From a bacterium (GTDB lineage Bacteria; UBA8248): a DNA stretch of 64,000 bases. The DNA lies in assembly GCA_965207065.1 (NCBI GenBank), contig OZ242260.1, positions 2,208,001 to 2,272,000 on the forward strand. The letters run 5' to 3'. Positions 13,421 through 64,000 of this stretch are shown here, piece by piece (within the stretch, counting starts at the first letter, position 1; the number at the start of each line of letters is the position of its first letter). Under the pieces are notes generated by a model. That model did not search any database. It was not told where the DNA came from and was given only the letters and a program-made list of their open reading frames with translations. A program made the translations under genes and the position numbers.

Positions 13421-13429
13421 GATGACGGC

Positions 13430-15968: not shown

Positions 15969-15978
15969 GCTCGCGACC

Positions 15979-16365
15979 CTATTTCGCCAGCGAGCGCATG
16001 AATGCGACCAGGTTCTGGAGGTCGGCGTCCGAAAGAACACCGCCCCAGGGTGGCATCAACGGTGATTTCCCTACCGCGACCCCGCCCAGCTTGGTGATCT
16101 TGGCGATATACTCGTCCGTTATGGTCTTCATGTATTTGGCGTCCGTGTGGTTTCGCGGCTTCGGGTTGAGCGCCTTGGCTGCGACGCCGTCTCCCTTGCC
16201 CGTTACACCGTGGCAGGAGGCGCAAAGCTGCTGGTATTTGACCTTGCCGGCTGCAACGTCGCCTTTCTGCTGAGCAGCGCTGTCACCTGCGGACGAGAAA
16301 AAGAGCGCCACAGCGAGCACCGGGCCTGTGCAGATGATAAATCTTCTCGATCGAGACATTCGCAT
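15979..16365 (-). CDS. Periplasmic monohaem class I cytochrome c
   Basis: Signal peptide, CASCHG, PKPRNHT, LMPPWG. Confidence 0.9.
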   Translation of the reverse strand: MRMSRSRRFIICTGPVLAVALFFSSAGDSAAQQKGDVAAGKVKYQQLCASCHGVTGKGDGVAAKALNPKPRNHTDAKYMKTITDEYIAKITKLGGVAVGKSPLMPPWGGVLSDADLQNLVAFMRSLAK

Positions 16366-16412
16366 TCAACCTCCCTCGCGGTTCTGCGGGCTTGTGTAAA
16401 CTTCCACCTCCG

Positions 16413-19079
16413 TTAAAGCGTCCGGGGAACGAAGCTCAAGCTCGTCAGCGAATGCTTGTGCGGAGACTCTCCTATCTTCTTCAACTTCCCCTTGCCCAGC
16501 TTGTAGCGGTAGCGGTTGGTCAGGGGGTCCGGCACCCGGTGAACCACCGAATTGGCCGGGTTCTCGGGAAAACCGAAATAGGCGAAGGTGACGCCCTCCC
16601 GAACCGCGTCGGTGACCATGGCCACGGCGGTGAAGCTCCCCTTGCTCTTCTTGATCCGCCCGGCCTTCATGAGCTCGGTGAAGGTCTGCTCCTTGCCGTC
16701 GACGCCGATGTATCCGCCCGTCTGCACGAGGAGGTCGTCGTTCTCGATGGCCACCAGGTCTCCTGATTCGATGCCCCGGGCGCCGGCGTCTTTGGGGTGT
16801 ATCTCCAGGAACTGCTGCGGCCAGCGCTGCATGATGTAGGGCCGACGCTTGTCGTCGTAGCCGGATTGCCAGAGCTCGTTGATCCGCCCGTTCGTCACCC
16901 ACAACTCGTCTCCCTGCGGGGTGACCCGCTCGTAGAAATCCTTGAAGTCCTCCCAGTAGCTCTTCAGCAAAACCGCCTTGCCGCTCTGGGTCCCGAAGGA
17001 GGTGAGCCACTTCCTGTGCATGGTGGGGCCTTCGGGGGTTCCCAGTTCGAGGGTCTCGTCGTGGAGCCGCTTCGTCCCGACGAGTTCGCCCTTGACCATG
17101 CGGATGGGGGTCTGGATGCCGCCGGTCCCGTATTCGCGGAGCAGTTCGTGGCCCCGTTTCCCCTCGCGCTTGGCCTTCACGACGAGCGGATGGTAGTTGA
17201 GCACCCCTTTTCTTCCGAAGCGGGCCGCCTCCTCGAATATCTGGTTGCTGTCCTTCCAGTCGAAGCCCTTGAAGCCCATCTTCCTCGCGAAAGCGGCGAT
17301 GATCCACCAGTCGGGCCGGGCCTCTCCGGGCGGGTCGGCGAATTTGCTGTAGAGCCTGAGGCGGCGCTCGCCGTTGCAGCGGGTGAAGTCTTCCTCGCCC
17401 CAGGTGGCGGCCGGAAGAATCAGATCCGAATACTCGGTTCCGATGGGAGCAACCGGGTAGATATCCTGGTGGGCCACGACCATGCCGCCGGCGTCCACTC
17501 GCCGCTTTAAGGCGTCCACCGCCGAATCGACGTCGAAGCTCTCGATCTGATGCGGGTTGCGGCGCGTCAATCGCTGGAAGACGTCCATCAGCTCCTGTGA
17601 CGCCGCCATGGCCTGGCACCAGGTGGTTCCGATGACCCATGCGAAGCGAACGTGGCCGTCCACGACCCAGCGGTCGAGGTCGATCTCCTTCTTGCGGCGC
17701 CCCGGCGCCTTCTCCGGAGATAAGGCCCTCGGGTAACCGGCCGCGCCCATCCAGCCCCGTTGGTGCCCACCGCCCCGGGAGATAACACGGCCCGGCCGCG
17801 ACCCGGCGCCGCAGACCAGCCCGAGGGCCGCGAACGAAGCCGTGTTCCCGAAACTGTTGCACCAGTAGTTTCCCTTCTCGAGCATGAACGAGGTCTTCTT
17901 GCGCGTTCCGTCGGGCTTGGGCTTGGCGAGGATTTCGGCTGTCTTTCGAATGTCCGCCGCCGGCACGCCCGTGATCTTCGCGGCTCGCTCCAGTTCGGCG
18001 TAGGGATAGCTCAGGATCCACTTCCTGTAGCCCTCGAAGTCGGTCCCGTACTTGCCCCAGGTCGTGACCCACTGCCACGGCGTGTTGCGGGTGCCGCGTC
18101 CCATGCCGGAGCCGATCTCCCACTTGTTCGACACCTTTCTCGCGATAAACTCCTTGTCCTCCCAGCCGTTCTCGAGGATCAGGCGGATGATGGCCAGTTG
18201 GAGAACCGTATCCGTTCCCGGAATCACGGGGAGGAAGAGGCCTCCCTGCTTCTCGCCGTAGGCCACGCCCGAGGTCTTGCGCGGAAGGGCGAAGACCAGC
18301 TTCTTGTTCGGCGTTTTTCCGCCCATGATCCACGAGGTGAATAGCACCGACTTGGTCTCCCACGGGTCGACGCCCGAGAAGAAAATAACCTCGGCCTCTC
18401 CCCAGTCGTCATAGGAGGCGCTGAAGGGATTGATGCCTGAAAAATCGATCCCCGGCGTATCCGGACCGGGACCCGGCTTGTCGTGCGGGGCATACGCCGG
18501 CGTTCCGATGGCTCGGAAGGCGAGTTTGGAGATGGCGTAGGTGTTTTCGAAATACTGATAGGAATACGTCTTCATGGCCCAGGCGTGTTCGCCGAACTTG
18601 TCGAGCACGTGTTTCGAGATTCCCGCCATGACGCCCATGGCCGTATCCCACGAGACCTCCTGCAAGGTTCCGCGAACGCGCATCATCGGCTGGCGCAGGC
18701 GGTCCTGCGAGGGTTCGTTGGGATTGTAGAGCTTCTTCGCCAGGACGCCGCCCCGGATGGAGTGGTTTCCCCCGACGTTCACGACCTTCGCATCCTTGTC
18801 CGGCATGACGATGACGTGGTGTGGGCGGCCGTTCACCATGATGATGTTGTGCATGTTCGGGCTGACCCAGCCGCCGCTCATGATGCCGGTGGGAAAATCG
18901 ACGCCCAGCGCGTTCTGGTTGGCCCTGGGCCCGCCCTCGCGCCCGATCGGCCAGCGGTAGACCTTGTACCCGCAGCCCACGATGCAGTAATCGCACGCCG
19001 TGGTGAAAACCTCCGCGTTTCGCGGGGGGAGGGGGACACTGTCTTCCGCAAGGTAGTAGTTCGTTACCTTTCCTGCCAT
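16413..19079 (-). CDS. idrA: DMSO-reductase-family molybdoenzyme, AioA-like; probable iodate reductase large subunit
   Basis: VPLPP..A....TACDYCIVGCGYKVYRWP [3Fe-4S] motif (canonical AioA has CHFC); GGHQRG, NGERRLR, TNGRINELWQS; no signal peptide; adjacent to a Rieske gene and two peroxidases. Confidence 0.8.
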   Translation of the reverse strand: MAGKVTNYYLAEDSVPLPPRNAEVFTTACDYCIVGCGYKVYRWPIGREGGPRANQNALGVDFPTGIMSGGWVSPNMHNIIMVNGRPHHVIVMPDKDAKVVNVGGNHSIRGGVLAKKLYNPNEPSQDRLRQPMMRVRGTLQEVSWDTAMGVMAGISKHVLDKFGEHAWAMKTYSYQYFENTYAISKLAFRAIGTPAYAPHDKPGPGPDTPGIDFSGINPFSASYDDWGEAEVIFFSGVDPWETKSVLFTSWIMGGKTPNKKLVFALPRKTSGVAYGEKQGGLFLPVIPGTDTVLQLAIIRLILENGWEDKEFIARKVSNKWEIGSGMGRGTRNTPWQWVTTWGKYGTDFEGYRKWILSYPYAELERAAKITGVPAADIRKTAEILAKPKPDGTRKKTSFMLEKGNYWCNSFGNTASFAALGLVCGAGSRPGRVISRGGGHQRGWMGAAGYPRALSPEKAPGRRKKEIDLDRWVVDGHVRFAWVIGTTWCQAMAASQELMDVFQRLTRRNPHQIESFDVDSAVDALKRRVDAGGMVVAHQDIYPVAPIGTEYSDLILPAATWGEEDFTRCNGERRLRLYSKFADPPGEARPDWWIIAAFARKMGFKGFDWKDSNQIFEEAARFGRKGVLNYHPLVVKAKREGKRGHELLREYGTGGIQTPIRMVKGELVGTKRLHDETLELGTPEGPTMHRKWLTSFGTQSGKAVLLKSYWEDFKDFYERVTPQGDELWVTNGRINELWQSGYDDKRRPYIMQRWPQQFLEIHPKDAGARGIESGDLVAIENDDLLVQTGGYIGVDGKEQTFTELMKAGRIKKSKGSFTAVAMVTDAVREGVTFAYFGFPENPANSVVHRVPDPLTNRYRYKLGKGKLKKIGESPHKHSLTSLSFVPRTL

Positions 19080-49481: not shown

Positions 49482-50027
49482 TCAGCAGCCTCTGCCGCCA
49501 CCATCCTTGATATAGCCGGTGTATGAGATGGTACTCGGCAACAGGGTCTCCACGCGTACCCAATTACCGTTTTGTTGTATCCATCCTCCATACTGGGAAG
49601 CTTTTGGCTCAGACAGCTGCAGAGTAAGGCTTTCCTGACCCTCATTGATATTGTCATTTAACGTTTGCACGTAGATGCGCGCGCCGTTGACGCCAGCGCT
49701 GAACTCAACTTTGCCGGTGGTATTATTGTAGTCATTTCCGGCCACAGCAGTGCCGTTTTCTGTTTTGTATCGATAGGTGAGACTTCCGCTATAAATGTTC
49801 TTGCCCGGCCTGGCTATCCCGAAACTCAACCGCCCTCCTTCACACGCATTCGCGGACTGTGCTAGCGCATGCGACGGCACAATGACACCGGTCATCAACG
49901 GAACAGCGAACACGGCAAATACCAAGGCCCACAAAGCGCGCTTCTTTCGGGTATTCCTTATGGTGACTGTGAGCGTGGCAACCGCAATCGGCACCCGCGC
50001 TATGCTTCTGTAAAATGCCTTTTTCAT
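49482..50027 (-). CDS. Small exported single Calx-beta domain protein
   Basis: YKTENGTAVAGNDY..TTGKVEFSAG..VQTLNDNINEGQE; GGAG RBS before ATG 50027. Confidence 0.8.
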   Translation of the reverse strand: MKKAFYRSIARVPIAVATLTVTIRNTRKKRALWALVFAVFAVPLMTGVIVPSHALAQSANACEGGRLSFGIARPGKNIYSGSLTYRYKTENGTAVAGNDYNNTTGKVEFSAGVNGARIYVQTLNDNINEGQESLTLQLSEPKASQYGGWIQQNGNWVRVETLLPSTISYTGYIKDGGGRGC

Positions 50028-50071
50028 GTCAGTTTCTCCCTTGATTGATGGTAGAAGCGGCTGCTCAGGTA

Positions 50072-50584
50072 TCAGCACCCCCCTGCCTGTGCTTGCGCAA
50101 CCGAGATTGAACCGTCGTCATCGATAATCTTCCCCTGCCTCTCGAATTGCCTCGGGAACTCCGGAGAGAGTTGGATAGGCGGCGTCATCCACCCCTCGAC
50201 GTTGCTGTAATACCCAGACATCTGGAAATCGTAGAACTTCAGAACGAAGAATTCGTCATTTTCCTTGGTGCAGTCGTCGCGCGTTTTCACCGAAATTCTC
50301 TTCTTCGATTCGCCCGGCCCAAATTCCACCTTGCCGCTGACCGACTCGAAATCCTGTCCGCTCGTGGCCGATCTGCCTTCCGTTCGATACGACCAGCGAT
50401 AGGACCAGTTATTCGGCGGGAGGTTCGTATCTATCTTGAACGTCATAGTCCCGCCCTCGCGAGCCTCGGCATCGGCCGCCAATGCCAGCGGCGAGCCGGT
50501 CGCTGCCCCGATCATCATCATGACAGCGAAAGTGGCCGCCGCAATCGGAAGTGGTGTGATATTGCGGTAGAATGGCTTTTCCAT
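50072..50584 (-). CDS. Small exported single Calx-beta domain protein
   Basis: YRTEGRSATSGQDF..VSGKVEFGPGESKKRISV...DDCTKENDEFF, GKIIDDD. Confidence 0.82.
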   Translation of the reverse strand: MEKPFYRNITPLPIAAATFAVMMMIGAATGSPLALAADAEAREGGTMTFKIDTNLPPNNWSYRWSYRTEGRSATSGQDFESVSGKVEFGPGESKKRISVKTRDDCTKENDEFFVLKFYDFQMSGYYSNVEGWMTPPIQLSPEFPRQFERQGKIIDDDGSISVAQAQAGGC

Positions 50585-50599
50585 GTAGGTCCCCTTTAT

Positions 50600-50830
50600 C
50601 TTGATGGACTGTCGTACTCGGTAGCTTCTAGTCCTAGTCGGCCTTGGCCTTGCTGTCCCGCGTCTGATACGAGTACCGAAAGTCGGAATCCGGCACCGTA
50701 TAGCCCGGTGCAGCGGTGGGCGCCGCGATCACGAACTCCGCTGCCTCACCATCGGTCACCGTGACATCCTGCGACGCGGCCGACTGGGCAATCGACGTGA
50801 GCATAACGTCGAGCAGGGCTCCTCCCCTCA
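50600..50830 (-). pseudogene. Third Calx-beta gene, degraded
   Basis: VTDGEAAEFVI..FRYSYQTRDSKAKAD then in-frame TAG stops where the paralogues have GQDF/GNDY. Confidence 0.5.
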
Positions 50831-51178
50831 ACATTCGCAACCACGCGGGTGCCTCGACAGAAATCGATTCTTCATAACTTTCTTCTTGTCCGAGTGCCGT
50901 TTCGTACTTCCGGTTCTTCTCTATCCCAATAATATTACAAGCCCGGAAATCGAAAATCAATTTTTTTTAATTTTAATTTCCAGAATAAAATCAATATAGT
51001 GGCGAGGTCTCGGAAGGACCGGAAGGAAATGCCCTCCGCCCGAAAGTGACGGATTCCGACGGTTAAAGAGATAATCGGCGGCAGGCGGTTTCATTCGCCT
51101 AATATATGAGAGTGGCACAAGGGGAGGGGTGATACGATTTGTCTGCTACCCGGGATCAGGGACATCACGGTTTGCTGC

Positions 51179-51466
51179 ATGAAGCTTTCGCTCACGCTGT
51201 TTCTCGTTTCGGCGAGCCTGGCGACACTGGTCTTTATGACACCCGTCTCCTCGACACCTGTGGAACGAAGCGGGCGAGCGTTGCCCTCGACTGAGAAGCT
51301 CACGTTGGCCGATGCGATTCGACGAGCCCTGCGGAATAACCGAAGCCTCATCAATGCGCGCCTCGCGCGCATCGCACAGAAGTTCACGCTAAAGAAAGCG
51401 GAAGAAAGGTATCATCCGACGCTGAGCGTCACCCCCTCAGTTTCCGTCGACCGCTCCGGTTTCGGG
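51179..51466 (+). pseudogene. 5' fragment of a second TolC paralogue
   Basis: ALRNNRSLINARL..KFTL..AEERYHP.LSVTPSVSVD.SGFG nearly identical to the 43386 gene; homology stops at an intron-derived palindrome. Confidence 0.88.
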
Positions 51467-51639
51467 GGCCGGGTAGGCGGGGGCATTGCTGCGCCCCGCC
51501 TACCCGGCCAATGGTTAGTAACAGTTCGGCGGAGGGGTGATAACTTAGTCGATGCCGGAGACATTTGTAGGAATTGCGCGGTGTAGCCAGCTTCAGCTGG
51601 TGCTTTCCTTTTCTTTATCACCCCACGACCGAACGAATA

Positions 51640-52448
51640 TTGCGCCAGGCTAAGCCCTGGAGAGGAGGATGCCATGACCTGAAACCTCTCGTAGCGACCC
51701 AGCGGGTTCGACTCCCGCCCGGCAAAGGCGAAGCCGGCCAGCCGGAAGCGAGTCTTGCATGGCGTGCGGCAACGCCCGTCGTGAAGCGTAGACAGCAGGT
51801 GATGAAGCGGCGGGGTAAGCCTCGAAATCGGTCAATCGACGACGCCTTCATTGTTAATCGTGTGGGGGCAGCACCAGGAGCGCCGCCAATGGCGAGGCGC
51901 AACGGGTCGTCCGGGGTCGTGGGCCGGCGCAAAGTCACGGGACGGGTCGCCAGGGAACCTGGGAGATCCTGCTCTTGCCCGTGGGCAAGAACGCTGGAAA
52001 GGGGACGGCCAGCGTGAACAATCCAGACCCCGGCCCGTCGCCGGACCTGCACGGCGGCGGGAGCGCCCCAGGGCGGACACGAACCCGGCAGGCGCCCGCG
52101 GAACCGGCTGGCCAAAACAATAAGCCGAAGGACATGCGAGGGTAGGAAGTCGTAGCGCCCTGATAGTACCGCTGAAGGCGGGGAACCGTGGCCATCGGGA
52201 CCCGCTGGAGGGAAGCGGGGCGTCATCTGTACAGAACCACTGATGGGAAACGATGGAGGAAACTCTGAGTTCCACCAACACGTACACGAAACAGCAGTGG
52301 ATAGCCGAACAGGCGAGGAATGCCTCGACCTGCGGACCAAGGGTGACAACCCCTTGAGCGAACCTGTCAGGTGAGGAACCGAGTGCGTCAATCGCGCACG
52401 CTCGGGTCTGCGGGGGGAGGGGCGCAGCAATGCCCCCTCCTACCCGGC
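51640..52448 (+). ncRNA. Group II intron with internally deleted RT ORF
   Basis: 5' TTGCG; domain V-like GAACCGAGTGCG..CGCACGCTCGGGTCTG; domain VI-like GGGGCGCAGCAATGCCCCCTCCTACCCGGC; only about 22 codons resembling an RT start (MEETLSSTNTYTKQQWIAEQAR) remain near 52253. Confidence 0.8.
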
Positions 52449-52461
52449 CATGGTTAGTAAC

Positions 52462-53613
52462 CGATGGAGTGGACGCGCCCTCCCGGCGCCATCAAACTGG
52501 GCGTGTTGACATTGGTCTGCCGCCCTGCGGGAGGAGCGAGATGGAACAGGTCCACATCATCGGTATCGACTTGGCGAAACACGGATTTCAACTCCACGGC
52601 GCGCGCCCGGACGGGTCGGTCGCGTTCCGCAAGAAGCTGACGCGGGGGAAGGTGTTGGGTTTTCTGGAATCGCAGCCTCAGTGCCGGGTTGCGATGGAGG
52701 CATGCGGGAGTGCGCACTATTGGGGCCGCGAGATCGGCGAACTCGGCCATGAGGTGAAGATCATGCCACCGCGATATGTGAAGGCGTTCGTCAAGCGTCA
52801 GAAGAACGACGCCGCGGATGCAGAGGCGATCTGCGAGGCGGCCTCTCGTCCCACGATGCGCTTTGTGGCCGTGAAGACAGAAGAGCAGCAGGCTTTGGGG
52901 ATGCTGTTCCGCACGCGCGACTTGCTGGTTCGCCAGCGGACCCAGACGGTCAACGCCTTGCGCGGGCACCTGGCGGAGTTCGGCGTCATCGCCCCCAAGG
53001 GTACCGCCCACGTCGTACAGCTGGCGTCCGCCGTTGCGGACCCGGACTCGGGGCTGCCCGAGTCTGTTCGCGAACCGGGCGGGCTTCTGCTCGGGCAGAT
53101 CGCCGACCTGAACAGGAAAGTCGGGGAACTGGAGAGCCGGATCCGCTCGGGCGCTTACGAGGAACAGGAGGCGAGGCGACTGATGAGCATCCCGGGAATC
53201 GGGCCGATCTGCGCGTCGGCGATACTGGCCTTCGCGCCGCCGATGGAGAGCTTCCGGAGCGGGCGGGACTTCTCCGCCTGGCTCGGCCTTGTGCCGCGAC
53301 AGCACTCGACCGGAGGCAAGTCTCGACTGGGCAAAGTGTCGAAGATGGGACAGCGCGACATCAGGCGGCTGTTGATCACGGGTGCAATGACGGTGGTGCG
53401 CTGGGCGGACTGGCGCGGCGCGCCGCCGGGCTCCTGGCTCGCCCGGATGCTGGCGCGCAAGCCGAGGATGCTGGTCGCGGTGGCGCTGGCCAACAGGATG
53501 GCGCGCATCGCCTGGGCGCTGATGACGAAAAGAGAATGCTACAGGGAGCCTGCGCCGGGCATCTGAACGGCAGGCGGGCGAATATAGACGGGAGGAATGT
53601 AAGCAGGTCGGAA
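52462..53613 (+). mobile_element. IS110-family (IS1111-type) element; transposase 52541-53566 intact, right end apparently truncated
   Basis: IGIDLAK, MEACG, KNDAADAEAI, GLVPRQHSTGGK; left end ATGGAGTGGACGCGCCC; no matching right end seen. Confidence 0.9.
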
Positions 53614-53828
53614 GGAGCAGAGGCGGCCTTTGCTCGCTTCAACGGCCGTCCCGCACCCGATTTCAAACATCTCGACCTCTATATTTTCGTGGCAAGAGCC
53701 AAGGATGCGCTCATCCTCGCGCATGGCGTGGAGTGATCACTGATCGGGGCCGACGCTACCACGCTCATCGACCCTAAAGACCTCAACATCGGCCGCGCCA
53801 TTCTGGCCGGGGCAACGGAAAAGGCGGT
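53614..53828 (+). pseudogene. Cache-domain fragment
   Basis: GAEAAFARFN..DLYIFV..ILAHG.. * LIGAD..LIDP..IGRAIL resembles single Cache domains; in-frame TGA. Confidence 0.45.
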
Positions 53829-53995
53829 TGTGGCTTTCGCCATTTTGGAGGCGGAGAAGAGTAGATATCCTTCTCTCGTATTATATATCGACATAAGTTC
53901 ATGCTTCTGTTTCGTAATCGGGCTGATTCCATATCCCGGCTTTTCAGTAGCGCGATTGACATTCTTTCCGTTAATCGACGGGATGCACGCGCCGC

Positions 53996-54811
53996 TCATC
54001 TTCCGTGCGCAAACAATTCCCGGAAATTGCCGAGAAGGAACAGCGCCGCCGCTGCTAAGATGATGCACGGCCCCGCGGGCGCGTCCCATTCGACCGACGC
54101 CCAAAGTCCCGCCCCTACTGAGACGATTCCCGCCAGGACGGCGAGCGCCGCCATCTGCTCGGGCGTTCTGGCGAACCGGCGCGCCGCCGCCGCCGGGATG
54201 ATGAGCATCGAGGTGATGAGCAGAATTCCAATCAGCTTCATGGCGACTGCGATGATGAAGGCAATCAGGAGCATGATGACGAACTTCACGCGGAAAGTCG
54301 GGACACCTTCGGTATTCACGAGTTCCTCGTGCACCGTGACGGCGAGAAGTCCCCGCCAGATAAAGGAGAGCGTTCCCAACACAGCCGCGCCGCCAAGGTA
54401 GATCCACCACAGATCCATCGCTCCGACGGCGAGGATGTCCCCGAAGAGATAGCCCATCAGGTCCACCCGGATCGTTTCCATCACGCTGACGGCGAAGATG
54501 CCCACTGAAAGCACCGTGTGCGAGAGTACGCCCAGAAGCGTATCAACGGCCAGTCTCCTTTGCTTCTGAAGCAGGAGAAGCACCAGCGCGAAGCAGATGC
54601 ACGCGGTGAGGATGCCGAGCCGCAGGTCGATTCCAAAGGCGAAGCCCATCGCCACGCCGAGGAGGGCTGTTTGGGCGAGGGATTCCCCGAAATATGTCAT
54701 CTTGCGCCAGACGATGAAACATCCCACGGGCCCCGTCACCACGGCTACGCCGACTCCGCCCAGAAGGGCGCGAATCATGAAATCTTCCATCAGGCGCTCC
54801 TGCGGAGGCAT
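53996..54811 (-). CDS. znuB: Zinc ABC transporter permease
   Basis: GPVGCFIVWRKMTYFGESL, DTLLGVLSH, VDLMGYLFGDIL, LIIPAAAARRFARTPEQM. Confidence 0.88.
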   Translation of the reverse strand: MPPQERLMEDFMIRALLGGVGVAVVTGPVGCFIVWRKMTYFGESLAQTALLGVAMGFAFGIDLRLGILTACICFALVLLLLQKQRRLAVDTLLGVLSHTVLSVGIFAVSVMETIRVDLMGYLFGDILAVGAMDLWWIYLGGAAVLGTLSFIWRGLLAVTVHEELVNTEGVPTFRVKFVIMLLIAFIIAVAMKLIGILLITSMLIIPAAAARRFARTPEQMAALAVLAGIVSVGAGLWASVEWDAPAGPCIILAAAALFLLGNFRELFAHGR

Positions 54812-54830
54812 CTGCCGAATTCGCTGATCC

Positions 54831-55440
54831 TCATTGCGGAAACCCCAAAACCAGCAAGTCGTCGGTGAACTCCATGACGAGGTGGAGGTCGTGTGAAATC
54901 ATCAGGACGCCGCAACCCCTCTCCTCCCTTATCTGCATGATCAGGCGGTGGAGATCGATTTGTCCAGCCATGTCCACGTTCTGGATGGGTTCGTCGAGAA
55001 CGAGGAGTTCGGGGTCGCGCAGCAGGGCGCGGGTGAGAAGGACGCGCTGGCGCTCACCGCCAGAAAGGGTTCCGACGGGGCAGTCCAGCAGGTCCCCGGC
55101 GCCGACTTCCCCGAGGCTAGCCTCCATCTGTTTTCGAGACGGATTTTGCGTCAGGCGCAACAATCTGCTTACGGTGAGCGGAAGTGTGGGGTCCACCGCG
55201 AATACCTGGGGAACGTAGCCGACCTTGAGGCCCTCCTTTCTGTGAACCTCGCCCGTATCAGGCTTCAGCAGACCGAGCAAAACACGGATGAGCGTGGTCT
55301 TGCCCGAACCGTTGGGGCCGACGATGCAGAAAATTTCGCTCGCCGATATCTCAACGTTTATCTTTTCGAAAACAGGCTACGCCCCGAAGCTCAAAGCTAG
55401 ATTATTGGCAGTAATGAGCGGTGTCCGGCCCCTAATCATC
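54831..55440 (-). pseudogene. znuC: Zinc ABC transporter ATPase, disrupted
   Basis: GPNGSGKTT, GYVPQ..DPTLPLTV, LSGGERQR, SHDLHLVM; in-frame TAG near 55378; short C-terminus. Confidence 0.82.
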
Positions 55441-55890
55441 ACCGCACTCGGGGCGACGGCCGCTGATTTCCAGAACGGGCGTCTCCATCTGAAAACCGGC
55501 CCGGCCGGCGCCGGTTTTCCCGCTTTGTGTCTCGGCCACGTTTCCACAATCGCGGCTTATGAAGAATTAGGAATTGCACATCTCTACGGGCGTGGCCCAT
55601 CCTATGTAGGCGTTTGGACTCTCGATGCGGTGGACGAGGCCGGGCTGCATAAGAAAATCAAGCGCCCGGCATACGGTGGGTGGAGCGTTTCGTCCCCCGG
55701 CTGTGTTCAGGCGCTGGAGAACGTAGTAGGAGCCCATGGGAGCGTGGCTCTCCCGGAGGATATCGGTCACCCCCCTCTCGTGAGCGGCGTGAGTCTCGCT
55801 CCGCGCGTCCGGCAAATCGCCCCGGCTCGTTTCAGGGCGTTCACGATACAGGCCCCGTGGTCGTGGTCCTTGCGGGGAAAATGATTGCTG
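55432..55890 (-). pseudogene. zur: Zinc uptake regulator, frameshifted
   Basis: DHDHGAC..RGARLTP, PPTVCRALDFL..GLVHRIES, RDCGNVAE, LEISG..PEC spread across frames. Confidence 0.8.
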
Positions 55891-55980
55891 TGCGATTTCA
55901 CCCGGTGCTTCCTGACCTGATTTATGAATTCCAATACGGATCGCTCATCATTGTTTCCTTTAACTGCTGGTTCATTCCCC

Positions 55981-57135
55981 TCAAACGCCGCTCTTCGCTT
56001 GTTCGAGGGATGCGACGTTCACCGGGTGTGTGTTGCGGCGACGCTTGTCGTAGCGAATATGCAGGCGAGAGGCATCGGCGAGGCTCAGGCCCACTTCGCG
56101 CAATTCGCCCCGGCTGAATCCCTTGCCGGGCCGCCAGACGCCGCGAGTGTCCCGCACGAGGGGGAAAATACCGTTTTCCGCGAGAGCGGGTTCCAGGAAT
56201 TCATCCGGCGACTCTTGCATCACCGCAGCCGCGAGGGAATCCCCAACCTCTTCCGTTATATCTTCCGCAGGCTCACTCTCCTTGGAGATTTCCGGTTCAG
56301 GTGCAGCAGCTTCTGCGGCGCTTTCGGCTATCTCCGAGTCAGCTTCTTCGTCTACGAGCGGTGGTTCGTCTTCATCCGTCGAATCTTGCAAAACCGACGC
56401 CGTTCGTGTCTTCTCATCCTCGGCAACGGCGTCATCGACGGCTTCCGTTTCACTCTCCTGAATGACCTCTCGCTCGGGCGTGTCAGCAGATTCATCCAAA
56501 ACAGGCGCAGCCAATGTCTCGAAGTCCTCGCCGTACCCTTCATCCAGTTTGGCATCTTGAGAAAGCACGGTCTCATCCGGCGCGTTATCCGTGATCGACG
56601 CAGCCAGGGATTCCTCCACATCCTGAGCCATTTCGTCCATGGCATCCGGCTCGGTCTCCTGCGGTGCTCCCCCTTCGGGCGCAGATGCCTCCGCGACGTT
56701 ATCGACTGCTTCCGAGGCCGCGACTTCATCGTTGTGAGACGACTCCGTTTCTTCCCGCGACGCTTTTGATTCCGTCTCGCTCAGCAACTCCAGGTCGAGA
56801 CCATATTCCTCATACGGTGCTGCTTCACTAGGCGGCTCGGGCGGATCCGGCGACTCATCCGTGATCGGCTCGACCAATGCCTCCGGAGCGGGAGCATCGC
56901 CGCCATCATCCGCGTCCACGCCGTTCGCTGAACCGCTTGGCTCAGGCTCTCCGGAAACGATCAGTTCCAGTTCCTGATGCGAACCAGGCGCTTTGTCCTC
57001 CGAATTTCCCGTCGCAGACGGAACGCACGGTTCGATGGTCGCCGGAGGCGGTATCTCATACCCCTCTTTCGGTTCAGCCTGTGCGGCGTTCTTGCGACGC
57101 GCGATACGGCTCAATAAATTCTTTTTGATATTCAT
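55981..57135 (-). CDS. Acidic low-complexity protein with C-terminal eL13 (L13e)-like domain
   Basis: GAGG RBS; basic N-terminus; about 300 aa E/D/P/A-rich; C-terminal RPGKGFSRGELREVGLS..ASRLHIRYDKRRRNTHPVNVASL. Confidence 0.7.
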   Translation of the reverse strand: MNIKKNLLSRIARRKNAAQAEPKEGYEIPPPATIEPCVPSATGNSEDKAPGSHQELELIVSGEPEPSGSANGVDADDGGDAPAPEALVEPITDESPDPPEPPSEAAPYEEYGLDLELLSETESKASREETESSHNDEVAASEAVDNVAEASAPEGGAPQETEPDAMDEMAQDVEESLAASITDNAPDETVLSQDAKLDEGYGEDFETLAAPVLDESADTPEREVIQESETEAVDDAVAEDEKTRTASVLQDSTDEDEPPLVDEEADSEIAESAAEAAAPEPEISKESEPAEDITEEVGDSLAAAVMQESPDEFLEPALAENGIFPLVRDTRGVWRPGKGFSRGELREVGLSLADASRLHIRYDKRRRNTHPVNVASLEQAKSGV

Positions 57136-57813
57136 GCCGCCCTCTTTGAGATCGGAATCTCGTTGTGTAGAGAAACAATAATCCGGGGCGGTAGAAACAG
57201 GTGAGACAGGCTACGGATTCAAACTAGCGATTACGAAGGCCCGGAGTCAAGCGGCGCATCGCCAAGCGCGCGGGTTCGCAAGGGCGGATATCGACAGGGG
57301 GAAATCCGTGCAGACCGAGCGAGCATCTCTCGTTCAAACCGAATTCGAGCTATCAGCCTGTCGAACTCAGGGCCTGTCTTCTGCAATAGGGTGTATCGGT
57401 GAGGTGTTGCGATGTATCCGGTGGGGTGGACGCGCGGCGGACCGCTCCCTCATCGCTTACGCTTGCTTTCTTGGAGGAGCGGAAGCCGCCTCGGAGGATT
57501 CGGAAATATCCTTCTTGCGCCGCTCGGCGCCGTGTTCGGCCCGGTGACCGCGATGTTCCCGGTTGGGGCGATCTCCAAGGATGATCGGTTTAGGCTCTCG
57601 GCACGGAGTTTCTCGCCATTGATTTGCGCGCCGCTGGAGATCCGGAGATTATCCCGCGAAGGCAGCAGGCGTCAGCGGACAGGATGAACCGCTACGGAAA
57701 AAACCGGAATCCCGAGGCAGGGCAGCGAGCTCTTGCGGCCTGGCCTGCACGTAGCTCACCGGCATCACGGGGGGACGCCAGCGCCCGGCGAACTGTATCT
57801 CGACAGGGACACC

Positions 57814-58740
57814 CTAGTGTGATGTCCTCAACAAAAAGATGATTATAATGGATTAAGTAACGCGGCTCGTGCCCGACCGACCTTTTCGACGATCTCTGCG
57901 ACGCTTTTCGTCCAGACGAATGGCCGGGGATTTTCGTTGTAGCTGCCCACACATTCTCTGAGACATCCCTCGAGGTGGGGAACCGAAGTGAAGACCCCGC
58001 GGCGCATCCGCTTGTCGGTCAGCATGGCAAAGAACCGCTCCACCAGATTGACCCACGACGCGCTCTTCGACATAAAATGCAGGAACACCCGGTTGTTCCG
58101 CTCGATCCACCCGAGCACCTTCTCGTGCTTGTGGGTGGCGTAGTTGTCCAGAACGATATGGATCTCCTGGTCTTTCGGCGCCTGCCTCTCGACCTCGCGC
58201 AGGAAGCGCAACACCTCCTGGTGGCGATGCTTGCGATACGTCTTGCCGGGCACTTCGCCGGTCGCCACGTTGAGCGCCGCGAACAACGTGGTCGTGCCGT
58301 GGCGCTTGTAATCATGCGTCATCGTTGCAATGCGTCCCTTCCTGAGCGGCAACCCCGGCTGCGTCCAGTCCAACGCCTGTATCTGACTCTTCTCATCGAA
58401 GCTGAACACCACCTCTTTCCCCGGTGGGGTGAGGTACAATCCCACCACGTCCTGCACTTCTCCTCGAAACGCGCGTCGTTGCTCAACCGGAACGTCCGTA
58501 TCAGGTGCGGCTTGAGCCCGTGTGCGCACCACACACGATACACGATGCTGTGCGTTGTCCCCAGATACCGCGCATGCTCCCGGCTATCCTTCCCGTCGTG
58601 ATTCCCGCCGCACGGCCGTTCCTTCTCGATCATCGATACGCCTTCCGCGGTAACCCGCGTGCGCCAGCGACCCACCTAGTTCGCGTCGACCCCCAACTCC
58701 GCCACTATCGCCTTGTTCGTCATCCCTCCCACGGCCAGCA
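57814..58740 (-). mobile_element. IS630-family element, frameshifted transposase
   Basis: DEKSQIQALD.TQPGLP, THDYKRHGTTTLFAAL, VLDNYATHK, SWVNLVERFF; CTAGTGT end at 57814; N-terminal half split across frames. Confidence 0.88.
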
Positions 58741-58876
58741 AGGATGAATGTTAAGCGAGTCCCTCTAAAGCCTAGTTTTATCAAGTCTTATACCCTGCAG
58801 GTTCCCCAGAGAGAAGCCCTACAAGAGAAGTTAACTTATCGAGCATGCGATTAATAGTCATCTTTCGCTTGGTGGT

Positions 58877-59479
58877 TTGGAAAGTGAAACGGATCCGAAA
58901 AGACAGATAAAGAATGTTTTGAAGAATTTGATCGAACATGTGTACTTCGAACATGTTACACAGGGACTCTATCGAAAGGCAGATAAAGTCGAATCCATTC
59001 GAACAGTTGATGAGTTCCTCGCTGCTCATGGAATGCCACCCCTCCCCAAACAAAAACAAGCAAAAGAGGATGAAAGCAAAGAGAAAGAACCAGAGATACT
59101 TCCAGTAGAATTAGAAATAGGCTCCGGTTCAGAAGTCGTCAATGCGTGGTATTTTCCGGCATACAAAGAGTTAGCTGAATTTAAGAATCAGGATACATGG
59201 CCTATCAAGATCGGTCGCTCCGATGGTGAGCCGACAAGTCGAATCAAAGATTCTATAGATCAAGCTCCCGAGAAACCCGCGATAGCATTCCTTCATTACG
59301 TTGATGATTCGCGTGAAAGTGAGAAGTGGTATCACATTCACATGAAATTGAAGAAAAAACATATCAACCAAGCGATCGGTGATGAATGGGTTGACTCCAA
59401 CTTATCTGAATTACGCGAAATGGGAGAAGTTCTAGAAGATATCCTGACCAAAAGCAAGGGTGTTTCGAATGACACATAA
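58877..59479 (+). CDS. Hypothetical protein with GIY-YIG/T5orf172-like C-terminal domain, possibly 5'-truncated
   Basis: AWYFP..WPIKIGRS..P.SRI..EK..H..GDEW; AT-rich relative to flanks. Confidence 0.5.
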   Translation: MESETDPKRQIKNVLKNLIEHVYFEHVTQGLYRKADKVESIRTVDEFLAAHGMPPLPKQKQAKEDESKEKEPEILPVELEIGSGSEVVNAWYFPAYKELAEFKNQDTWPIKIGRSDGEPTSRIKDSIDQAPEKPAIAFLHYVDDSRESEKWYHIHMKLKKKHINQAIGDEWVDSNLSELREMGEVLEDILTKSKGVSNDT

Positions 59480-60431
59480 CGCCCCAAGCAAGCATTTCCG
59501 GTCAGACATATCCATCATTGAGTTGATGGATATGCTCCCGGACGAGGACGCGGCCCATGAGTGGTTCGAGTCCGTATACTGGCCCGAGGTGAGGTGCTGC
59601 TGGCATTGCGGGAGCGTCAAGACGAGTCCCGTCAAGAACCGCAAGCCCATGCCCTAGTGGTGCGGGGATTGCAGGAAGTATTTCAGCGTCAAAACGGGCA
59701 CTGCTATGGCAAGCTCGAAAATCCCCATGCGCAAGTGGGCAATCGGGATATACCTCTATCTCACCTCGCTCAAGAGCGTTTCGAGCATGAAGCTCCACCG
59801 GGATTTGGGGATCGGACAGAAGGCAGCCTGGTTCATGCTTCACCGATTGCGCGAGGCGTGGAACCTGGAGGATGGGCTTCTCTTTGATGGCCCGGTCGAG
59901 GTTGATGAGTCATTTTTCGGGGGCCGGCGTCGCAACATGAGCAACGAGAAGCGGGCGAAGGAAACGGGACGAGGCCCAGCTGGCAAATCGGCTGTTGTTG
60001 GTCTTAAGGATCGCTCTACAAACAAGGTGAGAGCGAGGATGTTATCCAAAATGGACGCACGCACGCTTCAAGGCTTCATCGTGGAGCATACGAAAGAAGG
60101 GGCGATGATTTGGACGATGCGAGCGCATACGACAGCCTCCATAATCATCAATCCGTCAAGCACTCCGGTGAGCGAGTTCGTGAAGGGTCAAGCGCATACG
60201 AACGGCGTAGAGAGCTTCTGGTCGATGCTCAAGAGGGCGCACAAGGGAACGTTTCACAAGATCAGCCCGAAGCACTTGAACCGATACGTTCAGGAGTTCG
60301 CAGGAAAACACAATATTCGGGGTGAGGATACCCTGGAGCAAATGAAGTTCGTCGCGCTTGGGCTTACAGGATAACGTCTCAAGTATCGTGATTTGATTGC
60401 AGACAATGGGCTTTCTAATGAAGCTGTCTAA
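59468..60431 (+). mobile_element. IS1595-family transposase pseudogene
   Basis: CWHCGS..C.DCRKYFSV zinc ribbon, VEVDESFFGG, HTNGVESFWSMLKR; TAG 59655-59657, frameshift near 60110, TAA 60372-60374. Confidence 0.88.
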
Positions 60432-60693
60432 TCAGTGATCAAAGGTAACGGATGACAATATTATATCCGGTTTTCACCGCGCCGTATAGTACTTGCGGCT
60501 GAACGGCTTTTTGGTCGCTCCTCTCCGGTTATAGGCTTTCTCTGTTCGTGAAGCCCGGCTCCCGCATTGCCCGGCATTGAAGCCGTGTGCTAAACAATAC
60601 ATTCTGGAACGACACTACAATCAAACGATAAGTGAGAGTCCGCCGATAAACGTCCATTTCAACACGAAATAAGCGATAGGAGAACGAATTGAA

Positions 60694-61560
60694 ATGAAGT
60701 TGCGTGTCGAAACGCTCCTGGTGACTGTTGCGCTATGGGTGTTACCGGCGTTTGCAAGTGCTGCTCCCGCGCATTGTAAATACTGGAACACGCTCTCCTT
60801 TTTCATCAGCGCCGATTCGGGGGATGTCGCCCATTGTCTCAAGACGAAAAACGCAAACGCGAGCGACGTGGCTGGTCTTACCCCCATGCACCGCGCAGCA
60901 GGCTTCGGGAGAAACCCTGTACTGGTGAATATCCTGGCGAAGTCGGGCGCCAAGCCGAATGCGCTTGATGCGAAGAAGATGACGCCGCTGCACATGGCGG
61001 TGAGTTTCAACAGGAATCCCGCCGTCATCACCGCGCTCATAGCTGTAGGGGCCGACACCGAAGCGAGAGAGCGACGCACGTGGACACCACTCCATCTGGC
61101 GTCGGCATTCGGCAACAAGCCCGCCGTGATTCGCGCGCTCGTGAAGGGGGGCGGTAAATTGGAAGCACGGACAGGGGTCGGGCGTACGGCGCTTCATCTC
61201 GCCGCCCTGAAAGGCTTGTTCCCTACCGTGGCCTTGCTCATCAAGCTTGGAGCGAAGGTGTACGCGCGCGACATATACGGCCGCACGCCGCTTCACTTGG
61301 CTGCCCAGGCGAGTTCACCCGCCGTTGTGCGCGCACTGGTGCGGGCGAAAGCGAAAATAAATGCGGGCGATACGCGCGGAGAATGGACACCGTTTCATCT
61401 CGCGGCGTGGTACGGCAAGAACCTCGCCGTCGCCAAGGCCTTGTTCGAGATGGGGGCCGATAAACAAGTAAAAGACAAATTCGGCAGAACGCCGTTTTAT
61501 TACACGAAGTACAACGAGAACCTCAAGGAAAGTGTCGACTACTTCAAACCGAGGAAGTGA
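60694..61560 (+). CDS. Exported ankyrin-repeat protein
   Basis: Signal peptide ending ASA; six TPLH-type repeats (TPMHRAA, TPLHMAV, TPLHLAS, TALHLAA, TPLHLAA, TPFHLAA). Confidence 0.93.
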   Translation: MKLRVETLLVTVALWVLPAFASAAPAHCKYWNTLSFFISADSGDVAHCLKTKNANASDVAGLTPMHRAAGFGRNPVLVNILAKSGAKPNALDAKKMTPLHMAVSFNRNPAVITALIAVGADTEARERRTWTPLHLASAFGNKPAVIRALVKGGGKLEARTGVGRTALHLAALKGLFPTVALLIKLGAKVYARDIYGRTPLHLAAQASSPAVVRALVRAKAKINAGDTRGEWTPFHLAAWYGKNLAVAKALFEMGADKQVKDKFGRTPFYYTKYNENLKESVDYFKPRK

Positions 61561-61747
61561 CCCCCTGGTCGGGTTTAACATCGCAACTCCAAGTAAAACC
61601 CACCCAACCCCATCACACGCCGCTGCCGGACAGCAATATCTCCTCTGTTGCCCCAAGAGCCCGCCGCGTCGATTCCATCGACTCATATGAGATTGTCCCA
61701 TAGACAGGGAGCCGACAGCCTAGTCGAATCCTTTGCGGCACAAGGTA

Positions 61748-62389
61748 TCAGGTTCGATGAGCATACGATCCTGGAGGGTCAGGCCGCTGCGTACATAGCG
61801 CGCAAACCGCGTCTTCGGGGTACGGGTTGTTTTTGAGCATCTTCGGACACTGGTTACAGCGTTCGTGAACCGCCACATTCAGGACGACTTTCCTAGGGTA
61901 TCCCGATATTCTCCGCCTGGAGCCGTAAGGATTTGCATAAGTCCTGATACAGGCGTTACCCAGAACCTTTTCGGTTTTATTATAGGCGCTCCTGTAGGCG
62001 GCTATCCTGTCTTTTCTGTTTTCGATTCTTCTGGTTCCTCGGCGTGTTTTTCTTCGGGTAGCCTTATAAGCTTTTCTGGCTTGTGCTCTGGTCTTGGAAG
62101 CGACTTTTCTGGCAACCGTTTCGGCGCATCTCTTTTTTGTGTAGGCATCCGATTTGGCTCGCTTGAACGTCTTGTCGGCGGTTTTTCGATTCCAGGTAAA
62201 CCTTTCCAGCACTTCTCATCTTAACGAAGGCGGCTTTGGGGACTTTCGCCAAGGGTCCACACCCTTGGCGAACGAAATTTCGGCGTTGAGATAGTCCAGA
62301 CAGTTAGGCGCTTTGCGCCCTGGCAGGCGCCGCAAAAGCCACCAGGATCAGGATGAATAAGGCTGCGAACACAGCGATTATTGTTCTCA
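61748..62389 (-). pseudogene. Probable degraded exported basic protein
   Basis: Signal-like MRTIIAVFAALFILILVAFAAPARA then stop/frameshift; downstream K/R-rich ORF. Confidence 0.3.
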
Positions 62390-63039
62390 TACCTATTCTC
62401 AACGTGCATGACAGTTCAGGCAAAACCCTATTGGCGAATAACGATGAAACACCCCGCAAAAACTAGACTCACGTGGATGCTCCCAAAGAAACAAAAGCCA
62501 TGACCAGATCAAAGGGACTTCTGGCTGCCACCCTACGGACAAACCGGAAGCTAGTCTTCAATCGGTAACATCAACGTGTCTGTCGCGACGCGAGCGAAGG
62601 GATGCCAGGACCGAGGAGTCAGTCTCTCGCGCTTCGTTCGTATCTCTACTTGCTTGAGCACCGGGGAATGTACCTCTACCTGCCGCGCTACACCGTGATA
62701 CAACTCGCAACAGGCGAGCAGGTCGCGATGCGCCACATCTTCGCTAAACTATCGAGCGAAGAATTGGAAATCATGACCGATACCTCGCCCATGATGACTC
62801 TGAGCGGGTATTTGTTCGCCGCAATTCCGTGCCGCTGGTTCGCATACGTATTGTTGGGAGTCAGACAATTCGGAAAGTGGGGTGGAACCGCCTGAATTTT
62901 TCAAGAAGTCGCCTTTCTCTACGTTTTTTTCATGAGCACGGGTATAATGCGATTACTCCAAAGGGTTTTCCTTCACCCAGGAAACGCCGCGGGGGGTCCG
63001 ATGGACAACGCCGGTTTCATCCAATAACTGACGGACGTA

Positions 63040-63942
63040 GTGGGGGAGGACGCACCGGGTCTGGACCTGCGCGGTTTCTTCATTGGTTCCTAAGGCACGT
63101 TCGCCATCATCACGGAACTCACCGTGCGGCTCACGCCCAACCCCGAGAGCGTGCACACCATGCTCGCGTGTTTCTCTCGAGTGGGGGATGCCTGCCGGAC
63201 GGTGAGCGACGTCATTGCGGCCGGGGCCGTGCCAGCCGCGATGGAGCTGATGGAGCGCTACACCATTGAGGCGGTAGAAACCGTTGTTCAAGCGGGCTAT
63301 CCCAAGGACGCAGAGGCCGTTTTGCTGCTCGAACTCGACGGCCTGCCGTCTTCCATCAAACCGCTCGAGACCCTCATTCGCGATGTATGCGAGAAGAACA
63401 ACAGCTCCTCGTTCCGGGTCGCACAGACAGAAGAGGAGCGCGAAAGCCTGTGGATGGGCCGGAAAAAGGCGTTCGGCGCCTTTGGGGTCATCGCGCCCGC
63501 CTACTATTGCCTGGACGGCACGGTTCCCCGCTCGAAACTCGCGCAGGTGCTTGATGAGTTTGATGAAATCGCCTCTCGCTACGATTTACGCATCACGAAC
63601 GTGTTTCACGCCGGGGACGGGAGCCTGCACCCGAACGTCCTGTTCGACGATCAGGCGCCCGGGGAAACCGAGCGGGTGATTGAATGTGGAGCGGAGGTGC
63701 TGCGCGCGTGCATCCGGGCCGGGGGCGTGCTCTCGGGCAAGCACGGCATCGGCCTCGAGAAAATCAGGGAGATGAAGGAGCAGTTCGACGAATCCACGCT
63801 CGAGATCATGGAGCGCGTACGCGACGCCATCGACGAAGACGGCCTGATGAACCCCGGCAAGATCATGCCCGATGAGGAAAACGTGTTCCCGGTCGCTTCG
63901 GGCGGCGCCCTCGCCCGGATGGGCGGGGGGATGACGAAGTAG
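63040..63942 (+). pseudogene. glcD: FAD-linked oxidase (GlcD-like), 5'-truncated
   Basis: DLRGFFIGS*GTFAII (GSEGT with TAA), DGTVPRS, HAGDG.LHP, SGKHGIG (normally GEHG), LMNPGKI. Confidence 0.8.
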
Positions 63943-64000
63943 AAACCCGTGGCCCTCGAACTCGACTCGTTCGCCAAGTCCCTGGAGGCGGATTCAGGCG

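Follow-up and report, generated by a model that had tools for sequence, protein, structure and literature searches.

An eL13-fold domain in an acidic Nitrospinota protein and in its relatives beside Druantia-like helicase genes

Introduction

The ribosomal protein eL13 is regarded as a marker of the ribosomes of archaea and eukaryotes, and it is not known from bacterial ribosomes. Here we describe P0001, a bacterial protein that ends in a domain with the eL13 core fold, set behind a long acidic and disordered region. Its gene lies at positions 55981-57135 on the minus strand of a 64,000-nucleotide stretch of DNA (hereafter the window; positions 2,208,001 to 2,272,000 of contig OZ242260.1, assembly GCA_965207065.1). 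A 2011 tally of Pfam, as quoted in PMC3056875, counted 0 bacterial members in the eL13 family.

The second described system that bears on this protein is the defence system Druantia III. Its III-A form was solved in 2026 preprints, and the helicase DruE of the III-B form is described in the texts of these sources as compact and without phospholipase D (PLD) domains (10.64898/2026.05.12.722862, 10.64898/2026.05.13.724313, 10.64898/2026.05.13.724758, PMC12458937). The partner protein DruH is reported to bind single-stranded DNA (ssDNA) at the interface between its immunoglobulin-like (Ig) domain Ig5 and its C-terminal domain (CTD) (10.64898/2026.05.12.722862). In canonical Druantia III, the same CTD is reported to contact the stalk of DruE (10.64898/2026.05.13.724313).

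In the work described here, we find that the eL13-like domain of P0001 also caps a family of bacterial proteins built around a string of Ig-like domains, whose genes lie directly upstream of a DruE-like helicase gene. We favour, with a probability of about one half, the reading that P0001 is a cytoplasmic, non-ribosomal derivative of a Druantia-like (type III-B-like) sensor or adaptor subunit, devoid of both Ig string and helicase, whose eL13-fold domain would bind nucleic acid. Searches of main texts in the literature gave no link between L13e or eL13 and bacterial defence, and a term search in the main text of Druantia and YprA papers returned neither 'ribosom' nor L13. On this basis, both the eL13-fold CTD found in the DruE partner and the acidic orphan appear to be undescribed.

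Results

An eL13-fold domain at the end of an acidic bacterial protein

The P0001 gene (384 codons plus stop) opens with ATG and contains no internal stops, as judged from the list of open reading frames (ORFs) and the translation, and is further supported by homologues and by substitution rates given below. Residues 1-20 (57076..57135; all features of the gene are on the minus strand) are predicted to form a basic amphipathic helix with a net charge of +6, comprising six K/R and no D/E; this assignment draws on an AlphaFold2 (AF2) model, the family alignment and the charge count. Residues 21-318 (56182..57075) make up a 298-residue acidic region with 91 D/E against nine K/R, a net charge of -82, which is disordered by model confidence and composition and varies in length across the family. 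The remaining 66 residues, 319-384 (55984..56181), constitute the eL13-fold CTD, delimited by hidden Markov models (HMMs), the AF2 model, structure searches and hhalign, and carry a net charge of +6 with an isoelectric point (pI) of 11.2. The whole protein has a pI of 4.05 and a net charge of -70. A preliminary description of this locus, made from the letters alone, had reported some 300 strongly acidic residues behind a short basic N-terminus, which these counts bear out, and had quoted the last ~60 residues as they indeed read.

The AF2 model, built from a 40-sequence family alignment, is confident in residues 322-384 only, with a predicted local distance difference test (pLDDT) score of 78-93, and shows there a beta hairpin and three helices. 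A weak helix appears at residues 3-12 (pLDDT ~55), and pLDDT stays below 50 across nearly all of the acidic region; residues 13-321 are disordered and hold no beta domains. No hydrophobic, signal peptide-like N-terminus is visible in the P0001 sequence.

Profile searches relate the CTD to eL13, over one curated cut-off and short of the other. With the Pfam model Ribosomal_L13e (PF01294), P0001 scores 25.2 bits, just above the gathering cut-off of 24.9 (E 1.7e-5), and residues 334-370 align to profile positions 62-98 of 180 only. The NCBIfam model of archaeal L13e (NF008914) matches with E 2.6e-12 at 46.2 bits, far short of its equivalog cut-off of 96. In a phmmer search of the sequences in the PDB, eL13 chains rank first, the best being 9e6q at E 5.8e-5. 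Structure comparison gives the same answer: in a VIA search of 48,161 PDB representatives the top eight matches are all eL13 chains, with Z scores of 9.4-7.2 against 2.6 for the ninth match, 64-68 aligned residues, a root-mean-square deviation (rmsd) of 1.6-3.2 A and 24-39% identity. The closest, Pyrobaculum eL13, superposes at 1.6 A over 64 residues with Z 9.4 and 39% identity, and in a Foldseek search eL13 accounts for all of the top 50 matches. The likeness to eL13 is thus not a matter of chance, and it covers the conserved core of eL13 and not the whole protein. The preliminary description had proposed an eL13-type domain in this bacterial protein; since HMMs and predicted fold both match, the proposal holds.

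A family of Ig-string proteins ends in the same domain

A search of 1.84 billion representative sequences with the 70-residue CTD returned 227 matches at E <=1e-3. Among the 150 matches listed, about 47 were short and basic, and 53 were proteins of 480-971 residues with the domain at the extreme C-terminus. Five of the 11 short-form clusters looked up carried a name, in every case archaeal or 'ribosomal protein L13e', and nine of the ten long or mid-length cluster representatives looked up had no name. The 53 long proteins constitute one homologous family, hereafter the Ig-string family. No other Pfam domain was found in the ten members tested, and the sole match of a 40-member family profile among PDB sequences was eL13 (E 1.6e-13), confined to the CTD.

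In the AF2 model of one member, which has a pLDDT of 81, residues 2-16 form a helix, 19-147 are disordered, 158-671 make up an Ig-like all-beta region and 683-740 the CTD. Foldseek matched the beta region to strings of Ig domains such as those of titin, contactin, S-layer proteins and complement C3. The linkers are acidic, with a D+E fraction of 0.12-0.34 in 24 members, and one protein carries ~420 residues of acidic repeats.

A second search collected 160 Ig-string members. Among the 120 listed, 105 end in the eL13-like domain by motif, as do seven of the remaining 15 by eye. Four of the 120 (P0285, P0295, P0308 and P0309) carry in its place a lysine- and arginine-rich tail that looks like a coiled coil; the tail of P0285, the one checked, has no Pfam match. 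In a further metagenome member, P0299 (929 residues), an inserted NusB domain, complete in length (PF01029, E 2.1e-27, residues 714-841), separates the Ig string from the eL13-like CTD.

No relative of either the acidic or the Ig-string family was found on viral contigs, tblastn of the Ig-string member P0098 gave no match in phage and plasmid records, and a Foldseek search of BFVD with the P0001 model had no match at E <=0.001; blanks of this kind do not show absence from phages. The ESM Atlas held no usable match to P0001 or P0098.

Ig-string genes precede DruE-like helicase genes

Seven metagenome loci with an Ig-string gene were found using a 10-sequence alignment. At all five with downstream DNA, the next gene downstream is an ORF of ~1400 residues whose start overlaps the Ig-string stop; the other two loci end inside the gene. 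Together with two genomes of the Nitrospinota genus described below (G022 and G024), the Ig-string gene lies directly upstream of the DruE-like gene at 7/7 loci with downstream DNA. The ~1400-residue ORF contains DEAD, Helicase_C and MZB (MrfA Zn-binding, DUF1998) domains and matches the PADLOC model DruE1 with E values of 1.6e-147 and 2e-155. The two genes make up a Druantia-like module, whose DruE is compact and has no nuclease domain.

The G024 pair consists of an Ig-string gene at L037:9742-12132 followed by a DruE-like ORF at 12335-16498. Residues 117-694 of the protein encoded by the first gene align to the family (hhalign probability 100%), and this protein ends in an RNA-polymerase omega/Rpb6-like domain (PF01192, E 6.5e-8, residues 715-769) and a short acidic tail, with no eL13-like domain.

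As the canonical DruH for comparison we used that of an E. coli plasmid (L039, NZ_CP127005.1). This plasmid carries Zorya II, then Druantia III (a STY4851-family protein followed by a 2104-residue helicase), then an SNF2 protein and a methyltransferase, an array as in the 2025-2026 papers. No L13e signal was found in the E. coli DruH, and P0001 matched neither the DruH model NF038336 (E <=10) nor any PADLOC family (0 at E <=0.01). A complex prediction for the CTD of one Ig-string protein (L026, residues 700-786) with its DruE-like neighbour (residues 60-960) scored 0.02/0.01 against a mark of 0.32, which speaks neither for nor against binding.

Relationship between the acidic and Ig-string proteins

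In a profile-profile alignment with hhalign, the CTDs of the acidic and Ig-string families match with a probability of 99.5% (E 1.1e-22, 64 columns), and the P0001 CTD is 54-58% identical to the best long matches. Both CTDs share the signatures G-G/V-W-R-x-G-K-G-F-S and D-K-R-R-R. The two families also have in common, as layout and composition, an amphipathic helix at the N-terminus and, behind it, a disordered linker rich in acidic residues. Because the Ig-string relatives have such a linker as well, that of P0001 would be inherited rather than novel. In a tree of 62 columns, 15 acidic-family CTDs form one clade (Shimodaira-Hasegawa-like approximate likelihood ratio test, SH-aLRT, 98), nested in a 70-row group (51 Ig-string, 15 acidic and four short sequences; support 81); the majority of the short L13e-like sequences lie outside this group.

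Of the 51 genomes from the phylum, 19 have a PF01294 match, and all 19 belong to one Nitrospinota genus (19 of its 23 genomes, namely the P0001 genome and 18 of 22 others). No match was found in 28 genomes from 14 other genera or in 14 control genomes. The acidic form is carried by 18 genomes at 1-3 copies each; the number is 18 and not 19 because the weak PF01294 match in G022 is an Ig-string protein. Full-length DruE-like genes occur in this genus in G022 (62% identity) and G024 (64%) only, while the matches in G023 are weak pieces interrupted by stops (34-37% identity) and those in G028 are weak and partial (E 1e-7). In both G022 and G024 an Ig-string gene lies upstream of the DruE-like gene and the acidic form is absent; conversely, no genome of the genus with the acidic form has an intact DruE-like gene. 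The P0001 genome (G000), a single 4.48-Mb contig estimated to be 96% complete, matches the Ig-string protein P0098 over residues 684-735 only, and its sole MZB helicase lies 1.1 Mb from the P0001 gene.

G000 carries a second acidic copy, a paralogue at C1:4184318-4185445. The flanks of the G022 pair are collinear with G000 positions 4158119-4183393 and 4186667-4193812, so that its slot corresponds to the G000 interval that holds the acidic paralogue and an adjoining pair of short conserved ORFs, which may be a hicA/hicB-like pair. The cassette flanks map to ~4.18 Mb of G000 for G022 (L036/L038) and to ~3.735 Mb for G024 (L037). With insertions at two sites in one genus, the Ig-string/DruE-like cassette behaves as a mobile unit.

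Descent of the acidic paralogue in place from the G022 cassette was considered and rejected as a proven event, given its inverted orientation and the other site in G024. For the same two reasons, we regard the shared slot as a common variable region, maybe an insertion hotspot.

Conservation and selection

A word-indexed search gave 81 homologues of P0001 with lengths of 211-672 residues, 74 of which have a precomputed PF01294 match. Organism names are attached to five of them, four Nitrospinae/Nitrospinota and one Rhodospirillaceae metagenome-assembled genome (MAG), and four of these five are labelled 'ribosomal protein L13e', a name that is probably a misnomer for the family. Seven genomic loci of the acidic family were found, in Nitrospinota/Nitrospinaceae or unnamed MAGs.

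In the 40-sequence alignment, the N-terminus is conserved as K-K-N-F-L-S-R-I-A-R-R-K followed by Y-E-I-P-P-P, which supports the P0001 start codon. R10, R13, R14 and K15 of the helix are nearly invariant. The proline-rich motif at residues 26-39 (YEIPPP.AIEP.VP; 57019..57060) contains invariant P29 and I34 and nearly invariant E27, P30, P31 and A33. The acidic region shows length variation and indels in this alignment, and short linear motifs recur in it. The first copy in P0001, EEYGLDLELL at residues 109-118 (56782..56811), has invariant Y111 and E116 and nearly invariant E110, G112, L115 and L118; the second, EGYGEDFETL at residues 199-208 (56512..56541), was found as a regular-expression match and falls in a repeated block of the alignment. 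At least one EEYG-type motif is present in 79 of 82 family proteins (one in 23, two in 40, three in 14 and four in 2). The CTD contains 22 invariant columns between V327 and L377, among them R331, G332, W334, R335, G337, G339, F340, S341, E344, L345, D363, K364, R365-R367, H370 and N373.

The ratio of nonsynonymous to synonymous substitution rates (dN/dS), calculated by the Nei-Gojobori method (NG86) for 10 pairs, lies at 0.19-0.51 in the CTD and at 0.30-0.56 in the acidic region. Values for the 60-residue N-terminus span 0.17-2.2 and rest on few changes; most pairs stay below 1 in each of the three segments. Across the genus, 14 called copies have kept the acidic frame intact. The P0001 gene is therefore under purifying selection, less tight than that on a core gene.

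Genomic setting

By blastn, window positions 55974-57352 align in four pieces, each with 69-79% identity, to G000:C1:4184311-4185663, where the paralogue lies. The duplication, at roughly 70% nucleotide identity, takes in the acidic gene and ~217 nucleotides upstream, a leader or promoter region at 57136..57352 (minus strand), and the match ends 7 nucleotides past the stop codon. A promoter scan of 55400-57900 gave a single sigma-70-like site, at 57675-57648, which lies upstream of the leader and is at chance level. No terminator-like sites were found near the gene, and an Rfam scan of 50000-64000 at E <=0.1 gave no match within or upstream of it.

The paralogue's locus is a conserved chromosomal one that holds 12 of the 16 acidic copies examined. 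Its neighbours encode a TRAP transporter, a luciferase-like monooxygenase, an FMN reductase, an alpha/beta hydrolase and an NAD-binding protein. The window copy is the secondary one, and stands beside znuB, an N-terminally truncated ATP-binding cassette (ABC) ATPase and three kinds of transposase. Comparison of conserved neighbours across the widespread locus, the paralogue and the window copy gave no recurrent partner.

The ABC ATPase ORF beside znuB (54831-55280, minus strand) lacks the N-terminal part: it covers no more than positions 32-136 of the 137 in the Pfam profile, and the corresponding ORF at the syntenic locus L003 is longer. At 57843-58675 (minus strand), a DDE_3 transposase region is split into two ORFs in overlapping frames, and ORFs of IS110 and ISXO2-like transposases also lie near the P0001 gene. 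The preliminary description had called the frame intact among pseudogenes. The first part is correct; the second is borne out in part, by the truncated ATPase and the split DDE_3 region, which look like broken genes.

Several other elements occur in the window. Domains of a group II intron RNA lie within 51709-52448: RF02005 scores 124 bits at 51709-51926, and RF00029 scores 35.7 bits at 52374-52448, short of its gathering score of 40. With ~740 nucleotides the element has no room for an intron-encoded protein. The ORF of an IS110-family transposase (52430-53566) starts at the 3' end of the element. A 288-residue ankyrin-repeat protein (Ank_2, E 1.2e-37) is encoded at 60694-61560 on the plus strand amid ISXO2-like and DDE_3 transposase ORFs. 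A 1441-residue Lhr-type helicase with DEAD, Helicase_C, DEAD_assoc and three Lhr winged-helix domains is encoded at 4416-8741 (plus strand) and is unrelated to the DruE-like family.

Discussion

The sequence relationships described above point to a phage-defence ancestry of the eL13-like module of P0001. The parent protein would have comprised an N-terminal amphipathic helix, an acidic linker, an Ig-like string and an eL13-fold CTD, and would have been translationally coupled to a DruE-like helicase of the YprA family; P0001 would keep both ends and the acidic linker, without the Ig string. The analogy with published DruH suggests that the CTD contacts nucleic acid or a helicase. In P0001, the basic domain may bind ssDNA or RNA through R331, W334, R335, K338 and K364-R367, while the acidic tail, with its charge of -82, could compete with nucleic acid for the CTD surface and for the basic N-terminal helix and so gate the binding. 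The repeated EEYG.D.E.L motifs might recruit a partner. Any present-day defence role would require another partner, because G000 has no DruE-like helicase.

A number of observations weigh against this derivation from a Druantia-like subunit. Alignment of the acidic family with the Ig-string family is confined to the CTD, their N-terminal likeness being one of pattern and not of sequence. The tree has 62 columns, most of its forks are unresolved and several long branches are flagged, so that independent fusion of the domain is an alternative to loss of the Ig string. The acidic paralogue is inverted relative to the G022 cassette, and the G024 cassette stands at another site. At the widespread locus the acidic gene has metabolic and not defence neighbours, and neither a protein search nor the PADLOC model PDLC00013 found a DruE-like gene in G000, even at 96% completeness. 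Sequence searches did not connect the Ig-string family to DruH: hhalign of the Ig-string family against the E. coli plasmid DruH gave a probability of 0.3%; at E <=10, PADLOC returned 0 families for three of four Ig-string members and for the fourth only a stray Csx19 match (E 0.048); and NF038336 (YjiT/STY4851), on which the E. coli DruH scores 977 bits, does not match the Ig-string proteins. With no sequence homology detectable, the analogy with DruH is one of architecture and gene position.

Other explanations of P0001 have to be set against these data. The preliminary description had suggested a module that perhaps acts on RNA or ribosomes, either the cell's own or those of a host, with a tail that mimics nucleic acid. 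In such a case the module would dock on rRNA of the bacterium's own ribosome or on a host's 60S subunit, and the tail would serve as a spacer or nucleic-acid mimic. The most conserved eL13 residues (G-K/R-G-F-S, E-L and D-x-R-R) are invariant in the acidic family, the fold superposes on eL13 at 1.6-3.2 A, and the NusB domain beside the CTD of P0299, from an RNA-binding family, makes an RNA ligand plausible for the module. Yet bacterial ribosomes are not known to contain eL13, the match spans profile positions 62-98 of 180 only and reaches 46 of 96 bits in NCBIfam, no signal peptide-like N-terminus is visible, and the nearest relatives of the module are linked to defence and not to ribosomes. 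No finding supports an action on ribosomes, which we consider unlikely; the co-option that the same description proposed is well founded, in that the CTD clearly sits in a non-ribosomal architecture. Because the same domain caps the partner of a defence helicase in other bacteria, a binder derived from defence is more likely than a part of the ribosome. Somewhat harder still to sustain is a role as a decoy or regulator of DruE-like helicases, in which the free CTD would take the partner's site and the tail would block the DNA channel, damping immunity or acting against defence. The homology to the helicase partner's CTD, the complementary occurrence of the acidic form and the intact DruE-like gene within the genus, the slot common to the acidic form and the G022 cassette, and the reported contact of the canonical DruH CTD with DruE (10.64898/2026.05.13.724313) would all fit. 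The gene is, however, a stable chromosomal one, found at a conserved locus with metabolic neighbours in 12 of 16 copies; no copy was found on viral contigs, the carrier genomes have no intact DruE-like target, and a decoy without a target would be hard to keep under purifying selection.

The layout of a short helix, an acidic proline-rich disordered linker and a small helical C-terminal domain, with repeated conserved linear motifs and 1-3 copies per genome, would also suit a scaffold or hub that forms assemblies or condensates in the manner of PopZ-type polar organisers. We hold this to be improbable: the CTD has an eL13-like fold and not that of an oligomerisation bundle, and the likeness to PopZ is one of layout. 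A factor directed at an animal host, its eukaryote-like module and acidic motifs (D-L-E-L-L) acting inside the cells of a symbiotic partner, seems very improbable. Ankyrin-repeat genes and many insertion sequence (IS) elements are often seen in host-associated bacteria, both occur near P0001, and within the phylum the family is confined to one genus; against this, no secretion signal or adjoining secretion-system gene was seen, the closest relatives of the module are defence-linked bacterial proteins, and the resemblance of the motif to eukaryotic sorting signals is a putative one. We give equally little credence to a functionless, decaying remnant of a defence gene. The window copy does lie amid broken genes and transposases, and dN/dS values of 0.19-0.56 are above those usual for core genes; but the frame is intact in the 14 called copies across the genus, the CTD retains 22 invariant columns, dN/dS is below 1 for both the CTD and the acidic region in 10/10 pairs, and the gene was duplicated together with its upstream region.

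The derivation of P0001 from a Druantia-like subunit can be extended into a broader and speculative proposal, which we consider doubtful. In a widespread Druantia-like system, the partner subunit of the helicase may use C-terminal modules taken from the gene-expression machinery to link immunity with RNA, transcription or translation. Most often this would be the eL13 fold, with single cases of an omega-like domain or an added NusB domain, and the modules would either serve for docking or act as integrated decoys of phage factors. The acidic orphan would then be such a module set free, with a new role, for example as a nucleic-acid-gated regulator or a helicase antagonist.

These observations show that the eL13 core fold recurs as a strongly conserved bacterial domain, so that the label 'ribosomal protein L13e' probably misleads annotation and phylogenomic surveys. 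They also give the eL13-like domain a biological setting, as the signature CTD of an uncharacterised partner of a DruE-like helicase. For research on Druantia this offers a handle, in that the CTD may be an ssDNA- or RNA-binding or helicase-docking element, with an occasional omega-like swap or NusB addition. Should the derivation we favour be correct, the acidic orphan would illustrate a defence subunit cut down and kept after loss of its helicase.

Set beside the known systems, P0001 has features of each. With eL13 it shares the core fold of ~65 residues (beta hairpin and helices) and the signature residues; unlike that small, basic, stand-alone protein with its full extensions, it is a bacterial protein of 384 residues and pI 4.05, in which only the last 66 residues are eL13-like and follow an acidic disordered region of 298 residues. 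The tryptophan that precedes R-x-G-K-G-F-S in P0001 and in the Ig-string family is not present in the aligned archaeal eL13 chain. As far as DruH is described in the texts of the 2026 preprints, the Ig-string family has the same layout, with an N-terminal part, about six Ig-like domains and a small helical C-terminal domain, and it occupies the same position directly upstream of a DruE-type helicase gene. The two-gene module would fit the type III-like or III-B systems, whose helicase is described in those texts as lacking a nuclease domain (PMC12458937; 10.64898/2026.05.13.724758). The Ig string is a feature of DruH and of the Ig-string relatives and not of P0001, whose residues 13-321 are disordered, and unlike DruH, P0001 has no DruE-like gene beside it or elsewhere in its genome. 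Finally, the acidic DNA-mimic anti-restriction proteins Ocr and ArdA have in common with P0001 an extreme negative charge and a link to the gene pool of defence and counter-defence. Ocr and ArdA are folded mimics of B-form DNA, whereas the acidic part of P0001 is predicted to be disordered and is tethered to a basic domain of nucleic-acid-binding type.

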